DNA of 13,866 bases from a virus: UHGV virus genome UHGV-0091536; one strand, 5' to 3'. This document shows, one piece after another, positions 1 to 9,752 of this stretch (position 1 is the stretch's first letter; each line of letters begins with the position of its first letter). Position numbers and translations under genes: made by a program. Below the pieces are notes generated by a model that was given only the letters and a program-made list of their open reading frames with translations, did not search any database and was not told where the DNA came from.

Positions 1-2340
1 ACCCGTCAGGCTGATGTGATATTCGTTTTTACTCTGGTCCACATAAGAGCGGCCAGCCGGTGCCGTAACCGGCTGATAAGCCTGATAACCTGCATAAGAG
101 CTGGTCGCCGGAATATAACCACCGGTGCCATACGTGGCGGCATGAGTCCTTGCGGCGGTCTGGTCAAGTGTGTCTGACTCTTTGTTGATAACCCCGAGTT
201 TTTCCAGTACCCAGTCAATACCGCTGCGCAGTTTGTTGAACGCATTAAGCGGCAGCATCAGCGCGTCAGCCAGTGCCTGCCCGAACATGACACCCGTGTC
301 ACGGCAACTGTTCAGGGTGTCCTGGGTGGCTTTGACCGGGGCAATCAGGTTTTTAAACCACTGCCACGCGGCCTGTAACTTTTCGCCCAGCCAGTCAAAC
401 ACCGGTTTCAGTGGCGTGAACAGTTCCCCCACCGGCGCAAATGCCGCTTTCAGCCCTTCCACCACACCGCCAAAGAATGCGCTGACAGGCTCCCAGTATT
501 TACGGATAAGTAACGCCCCGGCGACAATGGCGGCCACCACGGCCACAACCGGCCAGCTAATCGCCCCGATGGCGGTCATAACAGCACTGCCAACCGTCGT
601 GAAAATTGCCCCCATTGCGCCTGCTGCCGCGATGATGGCATTAATGCCGGTGATAACCGGCCAGGCTACAAGACCAATGGCACCGATGATGCCAGTCAGC
701 GCCAGTGCGCCACCGACAATGAGGCCGATGGTTGACGCCAGTGATTTGTTTTTCTGTATCCAGCCGTCGAGTTTTAACACATACTTTGTGGCCGTCTGCG
801 TAAGCTTACGCAGTGCGCCTTCCTGCTGGTCAAACAGGTCTGTCCCCACCGCCTCATAAGCGGACTGAAACTCCTTAAAGTCACCGCCGAGGTTGTCCTG
901 CATGATATTTACCAGCTCGGCGGTCTTCCCGTCTGAGGCTTTAAACGCAGCGGTCAGTTTGTCCAGCTTTCCGGTTGAGGCGGCAGTCATCAGCACGGCG
1001 GCGGCTGAGCTGGCCTCCTCCCCGAAAATGGTTTTCATGTATTCAGCCTGCTGGGCAGTACCGAGCCGGTTTTTCTCAAAACTGGCCTGCATTTCTTTCA
1101 GAATGGTAAATACTGGCCGGGTGTTTCCCTTGCTGTCTGAGGTTTTCACACCAAGCTCTTTCAGTGCATCCCATGCTTTTCCCGTCGGTGCCTGCAGGCG
1201 GCTTAACACGGCACGGCTTCCCGTCCCCGCCATTGAACCGGTAATTTTTGCATCATGCAGCGCCCCGACCATTGCGGCGGTTTCTTCAATGCTGACACCG
1301 GCATTTTTTGCCACAGGTGCGGCATAGGTCAGCGCATCGCTCATGCCGTCAAAATCGGCGGCGGTTTTGTTCATCGTCATGGAGAGAACATCCCCGATAT
1401 GAGCGACCTTATCGTTTGAAAGCTGAAAGGCGGATTTCATCCCCATCAACAGGGCGGCGTTTTCTTCCATCGTGCGGCGGTTCGCCAGCGCCATGTTCAG
1501 CGTGACCGGCGTTGCCGCCTGAATGGCATCAACATCCCCACCGGCTTTCGCAATAATAATCTGCGCACCGGCTGCATCATCTGCCGAGGCGGCGGTATTG
1601 TCGCCGAGCTGGCGCGCCTGCTTGCGGAGTGCGGCCATTTCGGCGGAGTCTTTTGCCACACCTAGCACGGCCTGCAATTCTGAGTTTTTCTGCGCAAACT
1701 CATAACCGGGCATCAGTAGCTTAACACCGGCCATCGTTCCCGCCGCCGCAATCCCCACACCGGCAGCGCCCACTGAGGCCATATTTCCGGCCAGTTCCTT
1801 TCCGGCCTGATAACGCTGTTTTACTGCGTTAAGTTTTGCCTGTTGCGCACTGACACGCGCCAGCGCGTCACGCTGCCGGTTAAGCTGCGCGGTGGTTTCA
1901 CTGATACGGTTTTTCAGCCCCTGCTCATCATGTGCAAGATTGCGGGTATTAATTCCCACAGCAGCCAGTTCCCGCTGCTGGCGTTTAACGGAATCCGTCA
2001 GGCGGTTATATTTCGCCTGTAAGTCCTCCGCTGCTCGCTTTGCGGATTCCAGCACTTTCGCCTGAGCACGGGTCGGACGCTCGGTGTTTTTAAACTGTGT
2101 GGCAAGGGCTTCGGCCTCCTGCCGTGCCTTTTCAAGTGCATGACCAGTCACGGCGAGCTGTGCACTGGTCTTGCGGAATCCCTCAATACGGGATGCCTGA
2201 CCGTTCAGCTCGCGCAGTGATTTTTGTGTTTCCCGGATATCCCCCGACAGCGACTTGCTCGCTGTGCGGATGGATTTAAACGGGCGGGATGCCTGGTCAA
2301 CAGCCCTGAGCAATACCTGTAATTTTACATTGTTACTCAT
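1..2340 (-). CDS. T: Tail tape measure protein (P2 gpT family), partial; C-terminus runs off the window start
   Basis: Continuous minus-strand frame from ATG at 2340-2338 to position 1 with no stop (780 codons). N-terminus translates as MSNNVKLQVLLRAVDQASRPFKS..., with coiled-coil-rich middle and Gly/Ala-rich hydrophobic segments typical of tape measure proteins. Sits immediately downstream of E/E' as in P2. Absent from the ORF track only because no stop lies in the window. Confidence 0.88.
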   Translation of the reverse strand, partial: MSNNVKLQVLLRAVDQASRPFKSIRTASKSLSGDIRETQKSLRELNGQASRIEGFRKTSAQLAVTGHALEKARQEAEALATQFKNTERPTRAQAKVLESAKRAAEDLQAKYNRLTDSVKRQQRELAAVGINTRNLAHDEQGLKNRISETTAQLNRQRDALARVSAQQAKLNAVKQRYQAGKELAGNMASVGAAGVGIAAAGTMAGVKLLMPGYEFAQKNSELQAVLGVAKDSAEMAALRKQARQLGDNTAASADDAAGAQIIIAKAGGDVDAIQAATPVTLNMALANRRTMEENAALLMGMKSAFQLSNDKVAHIGDVLSMTMNKTAADFDGMSDALTYAAPVAKNAGVSIEETAAMVGALHDAKITGSMAGTGSRAVLSRLQAPTGKAWDALKELGVKTSDSKGNTRPVFTILKEMQASFEKNRLGTAQQAEYMKTIFGEEASSAAAVLMTAASTGKLDKLTAAFKASDGKTAELVNIMQDNLGGDFKEFQSAYEAVGTDLFDQQEGALRKLTQTATKYVLKLDGWIQKNKSLASTIGLIVGGALALTGIIGAIGLVAWPVITGINAIIAAAGAMGAIFTTVGSAVMTAIGAISWPVVAVVAAIVAGALLIRKYWEPVSAFFGGVVEGLKAAFAPVGELFTPLKPVFDWLGEKLQAAWQWFKNLIAPVKATQDTLNSCRDTGVMFGQALADALMLPLNAFNKLRSGIDWVLEKLGVINKESDTLDQTAARTHAATYGTGGYIPATSSYAGYQAYQPVTAPAGRSYVDQSKNEYHISLTG

Positions 2341-2760
2341 TCGTGTTTCCGCTTCGCCGGAGCGCCTTTTCGCGCCATGTGATGAGTTCGGTCAGGCTCA
2401 TGGGATACAGTTCTGATGGCGGCCAGTGAAATATCACTGCCACATCCGCCATCAGGTCATCGACCGAGAGATTTTTCGGAAACGTTACTGCACCGAGTTC
2501 GGCGACAAAAAACCGACCACCTTACCGGCCAGCGCCACAAGGTCAGGCAGTTCCAGCGCGGCGACCTCCTGCTCGGTCAGCATTGGTGCCGTCATGCGCG
2601 GCAGCACCTTAATCAGCGCATCGACTTCGGAGTTTGCGACCGCAGCCAGACTGACACCGCGCAGCGTCCCGGCATTGGGTTTCATCAGCGTGACCTGTTC
2701 GATAACCTGCTCACCACGCTTGACCGGATTGTCCAGGGTAATCACATTTTCTTTGTTCAT
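2333..2760 (-). CDS. E': E+E' fusion tail chaperone produced by programmed -1 ribosomal frameshift
   Basis: The -1 frame downstream of heptamer TTTTTTG stays open to TAA at 2335-2333, reading ...FFVAELGAVTFPKNLSVDDLMADVAVIFHWPPSELYPMSLTELITWREKALRRSGNTNE*. Its stop overlaps the T start (ATGAGTAA). This is the conserved G/GT-type chaperone arrangement upstream of the tape measure gene. Confidence 0.7.
2485..2760 (-). CDS. E: Tail assembly chaperone E (P2 gpE), 91 aa
   Basis: ORF 2485..2760 (-) translates MNKENVITLDNPVKRGEQVIEQVTLMKPNAGTLRGVSLAAV...GFLSPNSVQ. Size and position (between FII and T) match P2 gpE. ATG at 2760-2758. Confidence 0.88.
   Translation of the reverse strand: MNKENVITLDNPVKRGEQVIEQVTLMKPNAGTLRGVSLAAVANSEVDALIKVLPRMTAPMLTEQEVAALELPDLVALAGKVVGFLSPNSVQ
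2506..2512 (-). other. Slippery heptamer T_TTT_TTG for the E/E' -1 frameshift
   Basis: Minus-strand sequence ggt ttt ttg tcg (plus-strand caaaaaa at 2506-2512) lies near the 3' end of E, where the -1 frame opens into E'. Confidence 0.65.
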
Positions 2761-2788
2761 GGTTTTCTCACTTCTGAATCGGGGTTAA

Positions 2789-2809
2789 CCGGTCAGCCAG
2801 GCTGACCGG
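2789..2809. other. Perfect GC-rich palindrome/hairpin in the FII-E intergenic region
   Basis: ccggtcagcc-a-ggctgaccgg: a 10-bp perfect inverted repeat centred on 2799, lying between the FII stop (2817) and the E start (2760). No T-run follows on the transcribed (minus) strand. Confidence 0.4.
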
Positions 2810-2816
2810 ATGAAAA

Positions 2817-3335
2817 TCACAGGCCGATATTGCGGCGGTGTTGCTCCAGCCGGTCGACGCCGTTCACCTTCTCAATCATGTTGATGGTGTCGATTTCGAC
2901 CAGCTCCTTACCGTCCATCGTCAGCCGGAAATAGGTGCAGACCACGGAGATTTTCGACTCGGTGTCTTCTCCCTGTTTGCCCTCGCCGGTGTCGATTTCT
3001 TTCTGACGTCCACGCATGACCACTTCGACGGCCACCGTTTCGCCGGTATCGTCACGCTGGTAAGAGCCTGCAAAACGAATCGGCACAGCATCCACACCGG
3101 TTGCGGCGTAAAGCTCCCAGATAACCGAATCCGGGAAGCCACCGAGCGACCACTCCATTGACAGCGCATCGTCATCAAGGCCGAGGTCTACCGGTGCGCT
3201 GCCGTTCATCCCCGCACCGCGATAGTTTTCGAGCTTACGGGTCAGTTTTGGCAGCGTGACGGACTTTGCAACGCCCTGATAGCTGTAGCCGTTCAGAAAG
3301 ACGTTCATTAACTTGAGTTTGCGCGGCATTGCCAT
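2817..3335 (-). CDS. FII: Tail tube protein FII (P2 gpFII), 172 aa
   Basis: ORF 2817..3335 (-) translates MAMPRKLKLMNVFLNGYSYQGVAKSVTLPKLTRKLENYRGAG.... Length and sequence match the P2 tail tube family. AGGAG RBS upstream (minus-strand aggagcctgacc ATG). Confidence 0.9.
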   Translation of the reverse strand: MAMPRKLKLMNVFLNGYSYQGVAKSVTLPKLTRKLENYRGAGMNGSAPVDLGLDDDALSMEWSLGGFPDSVIWELYAATGVDAVPIRFAGSYQRDDTGETVAVEVVMRGRQKEIDTGEGKQGEDTESKISVVCTYFRLTMDGKELVEIDTINMIEKVNGVDRLEQHRRNIGL

Positions 3336-3347
3336 CGGTCAGGCTCC

Positions 3348-4157
3348 TTAATTGCTGTTAACCGAAGTGACCAGATTTGCCAGGTATTTATCGGTAATGC
3401 GCTGGCGCAGGGTCAGATTTTCAAGAGGAGGCACCGGGGTATAGTCGTAGTCGATATACAGTTTTCCGGCCTTGAGGGTTTCCGCATCGTTGGACTCTTC
3501 GCTGAACCAGCAGGTCGCATCCACGATATAGCCGTTTGTTTTCAGCTCACGGAATTTGGCATTGATGCCGTCAACGATGTCGCGAATCAGCGTTGCGGTG
3601 ATGGGCTTGTCCACCGCCCACATGTGCGCCTCAGCCATCGTGTCGGCCAGCACCTGCGCGGTGCGGGTGTAGTTTTCAAAGAGGAACAGCGGGTCATCAG
3701 AGCAGGTACGGTTACCCCAGAAGCGGAAACCGTCACGGCGAATCAGCGTTGTGACGCCTGACTCGTTAAGCAGGTCAGCATCGGTGCCGGACTCCTGCAA
3801 ATCCCAGAATACGGACGCGCTGATGCCGGTAACACCGTTCACCCCGACGTTGGACAGCGTTTTATGCCAGCCCTGCTCCTGGTCGATTTTAGCGCGCAGA
3901 CCCAGCGCACGGGCGGTGGCATACGCGGTAGCGGTGGTACTGGCGACCGTATCCCATGCGAGGAAATCCGGCCAGATGACCATCAGCTCACGCTGGCTGA
4001 AATTCTGGCGGTAGGCTTTCACCTCGGAAATGGTCTTACAGCCCCATGCGCTGATATACCCGAAAGCGCGCAGCTTCTGACAGACTGATGCCAGTGCTAC
4101 AGCCACCTCTTTGGTATCCAGTCCCGGCACACCAAGAATACGCGGTTTAACACCGGT
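3348..4157 (-). pseudogene. FI: Contractile tail sheath gene FI, 5'-truncated remnant (C-terminal ~270 codons only)
   Basis: Sheath-like sequence begins abruptly at ...[25 protein letters not shown]... and runs to the C-terminus ...[22 protein letters not shown]. The ~38 residues upstream in the ORF ([38 protein letters not shown]) are the gpI 5' end read in the wrong frame. No ATG or RBS sits at the start of homology; P2-type sheath proteins are about 390-400 aa. Confidence 0.75.
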
Positions 4158-4275
4158 TATCCGGGTTCCACAGCTCACGAATACTGACCGGCGTTTTTTC
4201 AATTTCCGCACAGGCTCTTGCGGCGGCGACTTCAAGCGGTGATGAGCCGGTCGGCAGCAGGCGCGAATCACTCAT
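4147..4275 (-). pseudogene. I: Baseplate gene I, 42-codon 5' stub (39 gpI-like codons, then NRC and stop)
   Basis: ATG at 4275-4273 overlaps the J stop (gATGAgtga). It translates [39 protein letters not shown], matching the gpI N-terminus as I recall it, followed by NRC* where the sequence becomes FI in another frame. Full-length gpI is about 176 aa. Confidence 0.7.
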
Positions 4276-5176
4276 CCGAGCCTCCGGTCACGACGCGGTA
4301 TTCGGTACAGAAAGACGCCTGCGTACTGTTGAGCACGATGTCAGCCAGTGGTGCAGCCAGTTCGACACGCTGCACGCCTTCCACATGCAAAGCGGCATAA
4401 ATGGCAGACAGACGGATGTCGCGCCCAAGCCGGTGCTGTGCCGTGATGTACGCTTCCAGTTTTTTCACGGCAGCAGCGCGGATGGGTTCGCTTTCAGGAC
4501 CTGGGTAAAGGTAAAGCGTGGCGTTTATCTGATATTCAACAATGGCGGCAGACTGCACGGTCACGCGGTCGGCCACCGGCCTGACGTCCTCGCCATTAAG
4601 GGCGTTACGCACCACGGCCAGCAGGTCTTCGGATGCGACGCCGTTATTTTCACGTGACAGCACGGAGATAGTGACGCAGGCCGGAGACGGACTGGTGACA
4701 GAGATATCCGCGACACGCCCGTCAGCACTGCGACCATGATACTGATAGGCTCCCACCGACCCGGCAACGCTTAAGCCCTCAAACGCCTGCTGAATACGCA
4801 GACGATAATCGGTGTCAGACTCCATCACTGCAGGTGTCGGCGGGATAGTCGAATCATCTGCCGGGGTGATAATCAGGCGCGTGGTGTTGTAATTGGCACC
4901 AATCACATCAAGGTCATTACCGGCGGCACAGGCCAGCATCACCGCCCGTGCGGCCTCATTCACACGCTGACGCCAGATAAGCTCACGATAAGCATTTTCC
5001 TCCAGAAGTTTGACGAGAGGCTCGGATTCCAGCGTCAGGGTACGGGCGACCGCCTCCTGCTGGTCTTCCGGGTAAAGGGAAATCAGTGTCGCCTTGCGTT
5101 CGGCAAGAATGGTTTCAAAGTCCAGCTCCTCGACCACATCCGGTGCGGGTAGCTGGTTCAGGTCGATAATCGGCAT
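4268..5176 (-). CDS. J: Baseplate assembly protein J (P2 gpJ), 302 aa
   Basis: ORF 4268..5176 (-) translates [47 protein letters not shown].... Length and position after W match P2 gpJ. Confidence 0.9.
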
Positions 5177-5180
5177 GGTT

Positions 5181-5528
5181 TCAACTCACAGGGATGGTTA
5201 ACGAAAGTGGCTGGCCGGTGTCGTTGTGCTGGCCGGTTAACGTGACCGTCATTCGCCCGTCAAAACTGCGCGCCGTGGTGACGGATGACAGGGTGACGCG
5301 GGGTTCCCATTTCAGCACCGCCATGTAACAGGCGACCTTAATCTGCAACTCAAGCGCCGGGGTCTGCGGCTGGTCAATCATTGACGCCAGCAACGAGCCG
5401 TAATCACGACGCATCACCCGTGAGCCGACCGGTGTGCGCAGGATATCGCCGATACTCTGGCTGATATGCTCAAGGTCAGTGACAGTCAGGCCATCACTGC
5501 GATTCATTCCGAGATAACGCGCTGTCAT
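5181..5528 (-). CDS. W: Baseplate protein W (P2 gpW, gp25-like), 115 aa
   Basis: ORF 5181..5528 (-) translates MTARYLGMNRSDGLTVTDLEHISQSIGDILRTPVGSRVMRRDYGS.... Its start overlaps the V stop (ATGA). Confidence 0.9.
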   Translation of the reverse strand: MTARYLGMNRSDGLTVTDLEHISQSIGDILRTPVGSRVMRRDYGSLLASMIDQPQTPALELQIKVACYMAVLKWEPRVTLSSVTTARSFDGRMTVTLTGQHNDTGQPLSLTIPVS

Positions 5529-6160
5529 AGAGGTCCCCCGGTTGTGCCGCCGCTGTCGCCGGGGTGTTTATGGGTATGCAGTACCTTACCGTTTGATGAG
5601 AGTTCACCGCCGGTGTGTTCAATGTTGCCGCGCATCGTCCCGCCCTTCTGTACTTCCAGCGTGCCGGTAATCAGCCTGTTGGTGCAGACCACCTCCGGTG
5701 TGTCCAGGGTGATGCGGGTTGACGCTTTCACCATGACCACCGGCACCGTGGCGGTAACAGAATCAGAAGCCGTCACGCTGGCCGTTTTTATTCCGCTTAC
5801 CGTCAGTGCACTGGTTTCAGGTTCATACTCAATCACCGCCCCGTCAGGGAAACGTATGTGCAGGGCATCCGCCGACGCAGACGGCGGAGGGTTATCGCCG
5901 GAATAAATCCCCGGCAGAACGAACGCCGTGTCGAGTTCACCGCCCACGGACAGAATCAGCACCTGTTCCCCCACGGAAGGTGCCCACCATGTGCGCGAAC
6001 GTCCGGCACGATGGGTCAGCCACTGAAGCCAGTCGGTGCACATGCCGCCGGTCTGCACACGGCAGCGACCGGCGTTAAGGTCGGTTTCGACGATAATGCC
6101 GGTGCGGATCATGTTGCGCAGTGCGCGCGCGAGTTCCTGAATATTTGCGAGAGTGTTCAT
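5525..6160 (-). CDS. V: Baseplate spike/assembly protein V (P2 gpV), 211 aa
   Basis: The track ORF 5525..6178 begins at a non-ATG codon (MCNLTR). The conserved start is the internal ATG at 6160-6158, giving MNTLANIQELARALRNMIRTGIIVETDLNAGRCRVQTGG..., which matches the gpV N-terminus and a 211-aa length. Confidence 0.88.
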   Translation of the reverse strand: MNTLANIQELARALRNMIRTGIIVETDLNAGRCRVQTGGMCTDWLQWLTHRAGRSRTWWAPSVGEQVLILSVGGELDTAFVLPGIYSGDNPPPSASADALHIRFPDGAVIEYEPETSALTVSGIKTASVTASDSVTATVPVVMVKASTRITLDTPEVVCTNRLITGTLEVQKGGTMRGNIEHTGGELSSNGKVLHTHKHPGDSGGTTGGPL

Positions 6161-6243
6161 GCGTGTGAGATTGCACAATATATAAAAGTTATGCTATCTG
6201 GATTCATTTGTAGAACGACCATACAACATTCGAGGAGAGCGTA
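6161..6243 (+). promoter_or_regulatory. Putative promoter and strong RBS for the cargo ORF
   Basis: GAGGAGAG at 6232-6239 lies 4-5 nt upstream of ATG 6244. Candidate sigma70 elements are TTGCAC (6171-6176) and a weak TG-extended -10 (tgcTATCTg, about 6192-6200) with roughly 18-bp spacing. The region is AT-rich. The promoter assignment is tentative. Confidence 0.35.
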
Positions 6244-7029
6244 ATGTTCAGTGATAATGTGACTAATGCGTGGTGGTTTATCTCTTTGTATCTATTTTTA
6301 TTAATAGCATTAACATTTATTACCTTTGGTAAAAGTAATCTTATGAGGTTTATTGCACATCATTTCAATTTTGAGTATTCAGACAGAAAGTTAAAAATGC
6401 TCGACAAAAAATGGCGCGACATTCAACTATTTAAAATAATTAACGGAATCAATGTATCAGGCATCGAAGATGTGAGAATGATACAGCAGGGGCTGATTGA
6501 TGGAAAACTAAAAACATCGTATTTTTTTCTTACTCGCTTCTGGGGTGACATAACAAAACCACCACACATAATTAAAACAATAATTGTAATTCTGTCCAGC
6601 ATTATTTATATTCTCTTCGCATGTTATATACACAACAAACAATCCGCTATAGTAAGAGATGCCATAGGCATACCATATAAAAATATGATGTACTATGTTT
6701 ATAGTGACAAAGTTCTTTTATCCTTCAACAATAAAACAGTTGAATTCAATAAAACTTATAGCCTTGCCGATTGCAAGAGGCTACGAAACGTATTTATAAA
6801 AGACACACTTCCTGAGATCGCCTGCAATAAGCTCTTACAGCTAAACGAGGAGGACTCGGAATGGTTAAGTCAGGAGATTAAAGATAATAACAGCCAAAAA
6901 AAAGCATTATTAATAATATCCCTCATCTATTTCATTTCAGGTCTGGTTATATTCCTGTCATATACAAAATTCCTTTACGCCAATAAGAAGGTTGTAGAAT
7001 ACAAAGCATCAAATAAAAATCACTCATAA
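6244..7029 (+). CDS. Hypothetical membrane protein, 261 aa, AT-rich cargo (moron) gene at the S-V junction; function unknown
   Basis: Complete ORF on the strand opposite the whole late operon. Three hydrophobic segments predicted by eye: about aa 9-28 (AWWFISLYLFLLIALTFITF), 108-129 (IIKTIIVILSSIIYILFACYI) and 221-240 (ALLIISLIYFISGLVIFLSY). It is Lys/Asn/Ile-rich and uses many AT-rich codons, while flanking P2 genes are GC-rich. Strong RBS upstream and a hairpin terminator downstream. I recognise no homolog. Confidence 0.75.
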   Translation: MFSDNVTNAWWFISLYLFLLIALTFITFGKSNLMRFIAHHFNFEYSDRKLKMLDKKWRDIQLFKIINGINVSGIEDVRMIQQGLIDGKLKTSYFFLTRFWGDITKPPHIIKTIIVILSSIIYILFACYIHNKQSAIVRDAIGIPYKNMMYYVYSDKVLLSFNNKTVEFNKTYSLADCKRLRNVFIKDTLPEIACNKLLQLNEEDSEWLSQEIKDNNSQKKALLIISLIYFISGLVIFLSYTKFLYANKKVVEYKASNKNHS

Positions 7030-7035
7030 ACCTCT

Positions 7036-7070
7036 AAACATTGAGCGACCAGCATGGCCGCTCAATGTTT
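7036..7070. terminator. Bidirectional intrinsic terminator hairpin between the cargo ORF (+) and S (-)
   Basis: Perfect 12-bp stem aaacattgagcg (7036-7047) / cgctcaatgttt (7059-7070) with an 11-nt loop. It is followed by tttaatt on the + strand and by a moderately U-rich stretch on the minus strand. It lies exactly between the two convergent stop codons (7029 and 7101). Confidence 0.6.
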
Positions 7071-7100
7071 AATTGCGCATCAGCCTCTGCCTGGATAAAA

Positions 7101-8013: not shown

Positions 8014-8266
8014 CGTTTTCGTCCTGACAGTGTTTAATCATTTTTACCTGGCTGGCACAGCGTGCCAGCGCGTTCTCAAGCTGCCGGATATCGGCACTTA
8101 AATCGCCGTTCGTCTGCGGGTCACTGCCCGGCATCGGGCAAAGACTCACTTTCGGGCAGGCGTTGTGGACAATCACTGGCGTCTGCGCAGGCCGGGCGCT
8201 GGTGCAACCGGCGCACAGCATCAGGCAGGTCAGCACCGTACCAGCGGCGAAAATCTTCGTTTTCAT
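7976..8266 (-). CDS. lysC: LysC, Rz1-like outer-membrane lipoprotein spanin, 96 aa, starting inside lysB in another frame
   Basis: Internal ATG at 8266-8264 gives MKTKIFAAGTVLTCLMLCAGCTSARPAQTPVIVHNACPKVSLCPMPGSDPQ.... This has a signal peptide, a lipobox-like LCAGC and a Pro-rich mature region. It starts in an alternate frame inside lysB and extends past its stop, as for Rz/Rz1 pairs. Confidence 0.8.
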   Translation of the reverse strand: MKTKIFAAGTVLTCLMLCAGCTSARPAQTPVIVHNACPKVSLCPMPGSDPQTNGDLSADIRQLENALARCASQVKMIKHCQDENDAQTRQPAQGAD

Positions 8267-8546
8267 TGAGTAACCTCGTGATGGTTTTCTCGCGCTGTGC
8301 TTCACGCTTCGCGGCGTTCTCCAGTTCCTGACGCAGTGCCACCTGCGCCAGCTCGTTTTTGTCTGCCCTGGTAAGGGCAACATGAAGCTGGTTTTTCAGC
8401 ATAGTGATGGTCGTCTGCTGCCCGCTGGCGACATTGTTCGCCCTGTCCAGTGAGGCGCGCAGTCTGGCGTTTTCATGCTTCGCCAGAAACAGCCCCGCCA
8501 CCGCCAGCGATAACAACACGACCAGTGCAATCATCAGCTTTGACAT
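8121..8546 (-). CDS. lysB: LysB, Rz-like inner-membrane spanin, 141 aa
   Basis: ORF translates MSKLMIALVVLLSLAVAGLFLAKHENARLRASLDRANNVASGQQ.... It has an N-terminal TM segment followed by a coiled-coil-like periplasmic domain and sits downstream of lysA. Confidence 0.85.
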   Translation of the reverse strand: MSKLMIALVVLLSLAVAGLFLAKHENARLRASLDRANNVASGQQTTITMLKNQLHVALTRADKNELAQVALRQELENAAKREAQREKTITRLLNENEDFRRWYGADLPDAVRRLHQRPACADASDCPQRLPESESLPDAGQ

Positions 8547-9471: not shown

Positions 9472-9752
9472 TACGGTTTCCCCCTGCCCTTAAAGCGGCG
9501 CTGAATGGCAATCTCAATCACCTGATAACCGGCGATACCCAGCATGGAGCCGATGCCGCACACCGCAGGCAGTGACAGGTCAGGAAACTGCACCAGAACA
9601 ACACCGGCAACCATCGAGACAAAACCACCGAGCAACATGCGCCCGATAAACAGACGCGGGGTGATGGGTTCACCACCGGCAAGCACCTTGCCGACAACAA
9701 TCAGCACCCCAATCATGAAAAGCGACAGGACGCTTTTTTCTTCTGCTGTCAT
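9471..9752 (-). CDS. Y: Holin Y (P2 gpY), 93 aa
   Basis: ORF translates MTAEEKSVLSLFMIGVLIVVGKVLAGGEPITPRLFIGRMLLGGFVSMVAGVVLVQF.... It has hydrophobic TM segments and a charged C-terminus, and sits immediately upstream of the endolysin. Confidence 0.9.
   Translation of the reverse strand: MTAEEKSVLSLFMIGVLIVVGKVLAGGEPITPRLFIGRMLLGGFVSMVAGVVLVQFPDLSLPAVCGIGSMLGIAGYQVIEIAIQRRFKGRGKP

Follow-up and report, generated by a model that had tools for sequence, protein, structure and literature searches.

How does a late-gene locus of a P2-like phage come to begin as the baseplate gene I and to end as the tail sheath gene FI? The question is raised by the virus genome UHGV-0091536, a stretch of 13,866 nucleotides that we analysed at its full length (the window). 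The window is an entire metaSPAdes contig (European Nucleotide Archive, ERZ1742842, NODE_2421_length_13866_cov_10.49, 13,866 bases), and its minus strand corresponds to the late region of a P2-like (Peduovirus) phage. In P2, the late genes of interest are arranged in the operons V-W-J-I-H-G and FI-FII-E-T-U-D, and I, H, G and FI are all essential tail genes. The initial annotation of the window proposed that a single deletion of several kb had joined a stub of I to the middle of FI, removing H, G and the accessory locus that lies between G and FI, and gapless alignments to three intact relatives bear out this proposal. Very probably, the contig represents a P2-like phage or prophage genome that underwent one illegitimate recombination event, which joined I codon 39 to FI codon 127 with the loss of about 4.3-4.6 kb.

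The junction of I and FI and its consequences

Breakpoints were set by gapless nucleotide alignment to three intact relatives, namely two phage genomes (L001 and L002) and the prophage of E. coli C7 (locus L004; NZ_CP010240, 4,283,104-4,325,546), which sits between yegR and yegQ and is the closest intact relative that we found. Relative to the C7 prophage, window positions 13866-4160 align with L004 12001-21707 (gapless, 97.9% identity) and positions 4159-1 with L004 26285-30443 (gapless, 98.3%), while the 4,577 bp of L004 21708-26284 are absent from the contig. The missing segment measures 4,304 bp by comparison with Salmonella phage MET_P1_103_31 and 4,512 bp by comparison with a P2-like phage of E. 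coli T22. On one side, window positions 6160..4160 match V-W-J-I through I codon 39, the limit being 4158 when the comparison is made with locus L002, which carries the T allele at this codon; on the other side, positions 4159..1 match FI, beginning at the second base of its codon 127, and continue to match as far as the interior of T. The native sequence is CCCGGA(T/C)A^CCTG at the I site and GTCGGTA^ACCGG at the FI site (^ marks the break), and their product is CCCGGATAACCGG. The junction therefore displays a microhomology of 0-2 nt: TA (4159-4158) if codon 39 of the parental I was GAT, and none if it was GAC, these being two alleles of a silent polymorphism that are both common. The position initially given for the junction, 4158/4159 within ggat^aaccgg, is thus right to within a two-nucleotide ambiguity, and the alignment to the closest complete P2-like relatives that had been called for has now defined both breakpoints and microhomology. 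Among IMG/VR contigs holding both flanks, the two native sites lie 4.3-6.1 kb apart. The features around the junction are the following:

4157..4160: deletion junction, with the I side ending at 4160-4158 and the FI side starting at 4159-4157, from alignments of the junction to both native sites of the three relatives
4147..4275, minus strand: I stub of 42 codons, made of 39 native codons followed by Asn-Arg-Cys (NRC) and a stop that come from FI DNA read in the wrong frame
3348..4159, minus strand: 3' two-thirds of FI, codons 127-396 and stop, devoid of its own start, promoter region and N-terminal domain
3348..4271, minus strand: mechanically called open reading frame (ORF) of 307 aa starting at a GTG, with 38 codons of out-of-frame I followed by FI 127-396

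Translation, Pfam matches and the gapless alignments agree in confirming a 39-codon stub of I joined to mid-FI. The stub covers positions 1-34 of the 139 positions of Tail_P2_I (PF09684), whereas the intact 176-aa gpI of C7 covers 1-139. Its 42-aa product has neither the full domain (1-139) nor the length (176-203 aa) of a functional gpI, and an exact look-up of this protein returned no record. The ORF had been described as I-like and as starting directly after the J stop; the first part of this description holds and the second does not, the start ATG of I (4275) overlapping the J stop by 8 nt. As for FI, the remnant retains positions 15-168 of Phage_sheath_1 (PF04984) and the complete Phage_sheath_1C (PF17482), and the Gp18_domIII_N domain (PF22671) that Pfam detects in the intact 396-aa FI is missing. 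With this domain absent and the start and codons 1-126 deleted, what is left does not amount to a functional gpFI sheath. The 307-aa ORF was called as a gene by the source pipeline. Its GTG (4271) and the ATG of I share the same GGAGG (4285-4281), at a spacing of 9 nt and 5 nt, respectively, and one may speculate that a little chimeric 307-aa product might be made from this GTG. In terms of annotation, the 307-aa "sheath" gene is to be regarded as a fusion artefact, and the element as non-viable.

The missing interval comprises I from codon 40 onwards, H, G, the G-FI accessory locus, a terminator-like hairpin, the region upstream of FI, and FI codons 1-126. According to the annotation of C7, it spans the 3' part of I, the genes for tail fiber and fiber assembly, one hypothetical accessory gene and the beginning of the sheath gene. 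Since the hairpin (L004 25784-25800) and the FI upstream region, with its promoter, both fall within the deleted segment, FII-E-T and the genes beyond would depend on read-through from the V operon, and would be expressed in no other way. The contig lacks H and G and retains only parts of I and FI, all four being essential according to P2 genetics, which makes the element a defective one; without a complete I, H, G or sheath, established P2 genetics therefore predicts that no infectious particles are formed. The element should still be able to make DNA-filled heads and to lyse the cell, but would have no gpI baseplate, fibres or sheath.

By comparison with the late operons of P2 and other members of Peduovirus (V-W-J-I-H-G and FI-FII-E-E'-T-U-D), the contig displays the same gene order, with gapless alignments and 96-99% nucleotide identity wherever sequence is present, but it lacks everything from I codon 40 to FI codon 126. 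Fusions of a similar kind exist in two complete genomes, FORC_082 (NZ_CP026641) and NCTC9041 (NZ_LR134296), where the 5' part of I is likewise fused to the 3' part of FI with loss of H and G, and where the homology at the junction is 2-5 nt. These fusions lie at 14902-15692 of the FORC_082 locus (L150) and at 14902-15553 of the NCTC9041 locus (L151), where the Prokaryotic Genome Annotation Pipeline records a partial I and a partial sheath. They join I codon ~143 or ~95 to FI codon ~275, whereas the contig joins codon 39 to codon 127. Moreover, FORC_082 carries a further O::M fusion and a frameshifted portal gene, and NCTC9041 a further cox-to-S deletion of about 15 kb, whereas the contig has a single lesion. 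P2-like elements that are defective and have pseudogenes among their core genes have been reported to be common (PMC13586616). As in the decay of cryptic ("grounded") prophages (a review is PMC6379469), essential morphogenetic genes have been deleted from the contig and others are intact, but its one lesion would place it at a very early stage, if it is a prophage at all. The lack of a second lesion fits a fairly recent event, although 14 kb of sequence constrain its age only weakly. The deletion is ordinary prophage decay, and a new allele of a well-known kind in which an internal deletion leaves a defective P2-like element.

Deletion ends shared among P2-like loci

With a homology of 0-2 nt, the event belongs to RecA-independent illegitimate recombination, which the junction resembles in sequence, as far as can be read from it, by this minimal homology and by the lack of inserted bases. 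Illegitimate recombination in E. coli has been described as resembling microhomology-mediated end joining and as being initiated by break resection (PMC11372144). A process dependent on short homology (direct repeats of ~4 nt or more) was rejected for this junction, as only TA or nothing is shared. We propose that the event started at a preferred break site rather than at a random one, because the TA step on which the FI end lies, in GGTA^ACCGG, serves as a deletion end in three further, independent defective P2-like loci as well.

We surveyed 391 fetched loci by aligning them to the C7 prophage, and accepted as clean only those deletions whose join left no more than 6 bases unaligned and that removed 300 bp or more. 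The survey yielded 27 distinct clean deletion events. Breakpoints of different events fell within 10 nt of each other in 18 cases, against 1.0 expected from size-preserving random placement (maximum 6 coincidences in 5,000 trials), a null model that ignores regions too variable to align. The re-used sites are as follows:

L004 16892: 2 events
L004 17778, in lysC: 3 events
L004 18346, in S: 3 events
L004 19974, in V: 2 events
L004 26285, in FI: 4 events (this contig, L201, L152 and L238, of which L152 and L201 come from the same isolate)
L004 26731, in FI: 3 events
L004 27864, in E: 2 events

The partners of these sites differ every time, and the sequence shared at the junctions is typically TA or TG and does not exceed ~8 nt. 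The re-used sites are TA or TG steps next to ACCG or CCGG. In fact, CCGG, a motif that was noticed post hoc, is found within 8 nt of 26 of the 54 breakpoints (48%, against a background of 13%; P about 7e-10), and near 17 of the 42 unique sites (P about 1e-5). In the same survey, no enrichment near breakpoints was found for GCGC, CGCG, GGCC or CCAG/CTGG.

The hexamer TAACCG occurs in FI in two copies only, one at the junction site (window 4154-4159) and one further downstream, which is retained in the contig:

3709..3714, minus strand: second TAACCG of FI (FI-2), within the sequence ggggTAACCGtacc at 3718-3705

FI-2 is the right-hand deletion end in FORC_082, in NCTC9041 and in the IMG/VR locus L195. 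FORC_082 and NCTC9041 share the same FI breakpoint (GGGGTA^ACCGT) and differ in their I breakpoints and in their integration sites. An additional candidate for a junction at the FI site, E. coli W170, was discarded: its match starts at query position 9704 as an artefact of the query, and its FI is intact. L152 and L201, which both end at the FI site of the contig, are contigs 000002 and 000003 of IMG/VR UViG_2548876938, and they represent two different defective P2-like fragments in one isolate with five clean deletions between them; a cause specific to this strain is conceivable for these deletions.

Taken together, the deletions that inactivate P2-like prophages may be non-random, arising from a sequence- or structure-specific break-and-rejoin process that would act on P2 late-gene DNA at a few sites, with 0-6 nt of homology between the partners, an idea that we put forward tentatively and to which we give somewhat less than even chances. 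Agents that come into question are type II topoisomerases, nucleases and transposases that act on pseudo-sites, and several of the re-used sites would lie in the short spacer between small inverted repeats of the CCGG type. A number of more specific candidates were considered. Restriction of the BstEII/Eco91I type at GGTNACC does not apply to the hot spots in S, J and E nor to the left partners, which are not such sites. Both FI sites are GGTAACC, and FI (L004 25906-27096) has five GGTNACC in 1.2 kb, whereas I, H and G have none, a density that is probably an effect of codon usage (GGT and ACC codons). Ligation of CCGG cohesive ends was rejected because it is at odds with the sequences of the junctions, and local folding of unusual stability because the folding energies of 60-nt segments at the hot spots are unremarkable (percentiles 16-88). 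A break in the 3-10-nt loop of a 4-bp all-GC stem applies to 10 of the 42 sites, against a background of 4.9%, a pattern that is again post hoc and that misses both FI sites. Concerning IS (insertion sequence) pseudo-ends, no usable inverted repeat could be found in defining the end of ISEc22 in L232. In illegitimate recombination that is mediated by gyrase or another topoisomerase and is independent of short homology, both ends would be expected at cleavage sites of topoisomerase II, with the exchange falling inside a 4-nt stagger. The core gyrase sequence reported by Lockshon and Morris in 1985 is said to be T^GRYC(T/G), which by eye fits the TGACCG of several recurrent sites, but the FI site of the contig itself reads TAACCG and not TGACCG.

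In the open-access literature, we could not find anything usable on the nick site of the P2 A protein or on known hot spots of prophage deletion, nor any description of P2-like deletion ends concentrating at a few sites. This concentration is what may be new here. If the idea of a specific process is correct, it would be a main route by which P2-like prophages become defective; prophage inactivation in E. coli would then have a mechanistic bias, measurable in thousands of genomes, and re-used sites would provide a nucleotide-level marker to separate real deletions from assembly chimeras in metagenomes.

Alternative readings of the junction

Turnover of the accessory locus had initially been suggested as a possible origin of the deletion, and machinery residing in that locus (turnover of the G-FI, or Z/fun, interval, an invertase of the Hin/Cin type, or an IS element) might indeed be thought responsible, given that the G-FI interval is variable among relatives and holds invertases, elements of the IS21, IS66 and IS4 families and various cargo genes. 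In PMC13586616, Z/fun is also referred to as a P2 locus for accessory and defence genes. We nonetheless regard such an origin as very unlikely, and could not uphold the initial suggestion. In C7, where the accessory locus begins after G, both breakpoints fall in core genes, ~3.1 kb upstream of it in I and ~0.4 kb downstream of it in FI; the gapless alignments leave room for no IS or extra base at the junction, which also has no repeat and no invertase-type site; and C7, the closest relative, has no invertase in the interval. For a deletion by Hin/Gin/Cin/Pin invertases, we scored the 18 consensus positions of the 26-bp crossover site, TTNTCNNAAACC-NN-GGTTTNNGANAA, in which exchange takes place at the central dinucleotide. 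The two breakpoints match at 8 and 9 of the 18 positions, against 17 of 18 for the true sites of L001 and L002, and the predicted crossover dinucleotide is 4-5 nt off the observed exchange point, so that this candidate was rejected. An IS-mediated adjacent deletion was rejected as well, in view of the absence of an IS copy or extra base at the junction and of any transposase ORF in the window. The ORF at 3348..4271 could in principle be no deletion product at all but a genuine short sheath gene, differently organised and belonging to a distinct phage lineage, as the call of one 307-aa gene with sheath Pfam domains might suggest. This we consider extremely improbable: on either side of the junction, the DNA has 97-98% identity with the I and FI of ordinary P2-like phages, the arrangement is present in no other genome among 5,426 complete E. 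coli genomes, and the case for a complete sheath gene, which the initial annotation had allowed for, fails because the N-terminal domain is absent and the first 38 residues are out-of-frame I. The 90% protein cluster of the ORF has 780 members, of which 40 were read and 6 examined at the sequence level; these six are contig-end fragments or truncations of the 396-aa sheath, and the N-terminus is not shared. An R-type tailocin or domesticated tail module was also rejected, the sheath being truncated and the fibres absent, and genes for capsid, scaffold and small terminase being present.

It might also be that the junction is an artefact, either a chimeric library fragment or a metaSPAdes mis-join, and that the real phage of the sample is intact. 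The source is a metagenome assembly with ~10x coverage, the junction was seen in no other public sequence that we searched, and a ligation chimera would likewise show 0-2 nt of microhomology. Yet two sequences can be mis-joined in a de Bruijn graph only if they have a (k-1)-mer in common. Between the 2 kb on one side of the junction and the 2 kb on the other, no common exact word exceeds 12 nt, and the word of 12 nt lies away from the junction; between the native breakpoint regions (+/-300 bp), the longest common word is 9 nt. A shared word of 12 nt is below any k used by SPAdes, which excludes repeat collapse. Had a rare chimera competed with an intact path at 10x, the assembler would be expected to produce a branch or to drop the edge rather than an unbranched contig of 13.9 kb, and the contig runs 9.7 kb and 4.2 kb through the junction without branching. 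Furthermore, both partners come from the same phage, in the same orientation and 4.5 kb apart, I::FI deletions of a similar kind are present in the complete genomes FORC_082 and NCTC9041, and the FI end is, to the nucleotide, the breakpoint of three other loci (L201, L152 and L238). The probability that a random chimera would land on one of the 7 re-used sites in ~30 kb is roughly 0.1%. An artefact of either kind thus appears quite unlikely. A further reading accepts the deletion as real and places it in a defective variant that coexists with an intact helper P2-like phage, for example as a minority genome that is maintained through complementation. Both contig ends fall within genes (P and T), a typical outcome when a second, related P2-like genome makes the assembly graph branch, and the contig's intact head, packaging and lysis genes would make it packageable if tails were supplied in trans. 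On the other hand, the contig shows no second haplotype, and its assembly should have stopped at the junction if an intact copy with the same J/I or FI sequence had been present alongside, which makes this reading rather unlikely.

A single real deletion between I and FI is therefore the reading that we retain, and several points weigh against it. The junction is found in 0 of the 5,426 complete E. coli genomes, ~1,700 of which carry matching P2-like DNA. Its exact 26-mer was not found in GTDB species representatives, JGI metagenomes or IMG/VR, nor was a degenerate 30-mer found in JGI metagenomes, although the flanks alone are common in IMG/VR (32 and at least 120 contigs); of the databases scanned, it is only in IMG/VR that the flank controls derived from the window gave matches. 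The concern initially raised about assembly collapse can be dropped as far as repeats are concerned, and stands for a chimeric library fragment, whose carrying over into a 10x assembly is a formal possibility with a small probability. The absence of H, G and an intact FI is stated here for the contig alone. Finally, the refinement by a preferred break site comes from a post hoc survey, for which loci were fetched by means of sequence anchors, and two of these anchors lie directly next to the FI sites.

Gene content of the contig

On the minus strand, the genes follow each other in the order P (fragment), O, N, M, L, X, holin, endolysin, lysA, lysB, lysC, R and S; after S, an AT-rich cargo ORF on the plus strand is followed by V, W, J, the remnants of I and FI, FII, E, E' and T, the latter running off the contig end. 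Matches to the expected Pfam families were obtained for O, N, M, L, X, holin, LysA, LysC, R, S, V, W, J, sheath, tube and E. The genes other than I and FI had been described as intact, and this proved correct for all those that are whole in the contig: neither internal stops nor frameshifts interrupt O, N, M, L, X, Y, K, lysA, lysB, lysC, R, S, V, W, J, FII, E, E' or the cargo ORF, and, apart from the I and FI remnants, the genes are full length with 0-9 amino-acid differences from those of the C7 prophage. Within the V-W-J-I-H-G operon, J is the last gene that the contig retains intact. The main flanking and additional features are:

4268..5176, minus strand: J, baseplate protein of 302 aa (from the ORF list), with Baseplate_J Pfam families and 1 amino-acid difference from J of the C7 prophage
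2817..3335, minus strand: FII, tail tube, intact, with 0 amino-acid differences from FII of the C7 prophage
8121-8546: lysB, 141 aa, a length that matches both phage references, against 147 aa in the C7 prophage annotation
6244-7029, plus strand: cargo ORF of 261 aa, within a non-P2 insert (6161-7098) between S and V

The difference in length of lysB is a natural polymorphism of the stop position and not a lesion. We could not find any integrase, att site or host DNA in the annotation of the whole contig, and the term "prophage" used initially is therefore an assumption, as there is no host flank. At one end, the contig stops 108 bp before T is complete; at the other, it reaches 392 bp into P; neither is a genome end. 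Ends of this type are typical of branches in the assembly graph, and a second P2-like genome may therefore have been present in the sample.

The insert between S and V is 938 bp long with 34% GC, and its ORF lies on the strand opposite to the late genes. It is shared with some relatives such as E. coli C7, whose prophage has the same ORF at the same place with 1 amino-acid difference, but not with the two phage references, which both have a 64-bp spacer instead. The prophage of WCHEC020031 also contains an ORF that equals it in size, strand and position. The 261-aa product matches PHROG 2407 (unknown function) over its full length and gives only a sub-threshold match in Pfam, while PADLOC gave no match.

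As regards base composition, the window strongly avoids the Dam site GATC and the tetranucleotide CTAG, which occur 3 times and once, respectively, in 13.9 kb, against 54 expected for each at random, while CCGG is present 146 times and GCGC 125 times.

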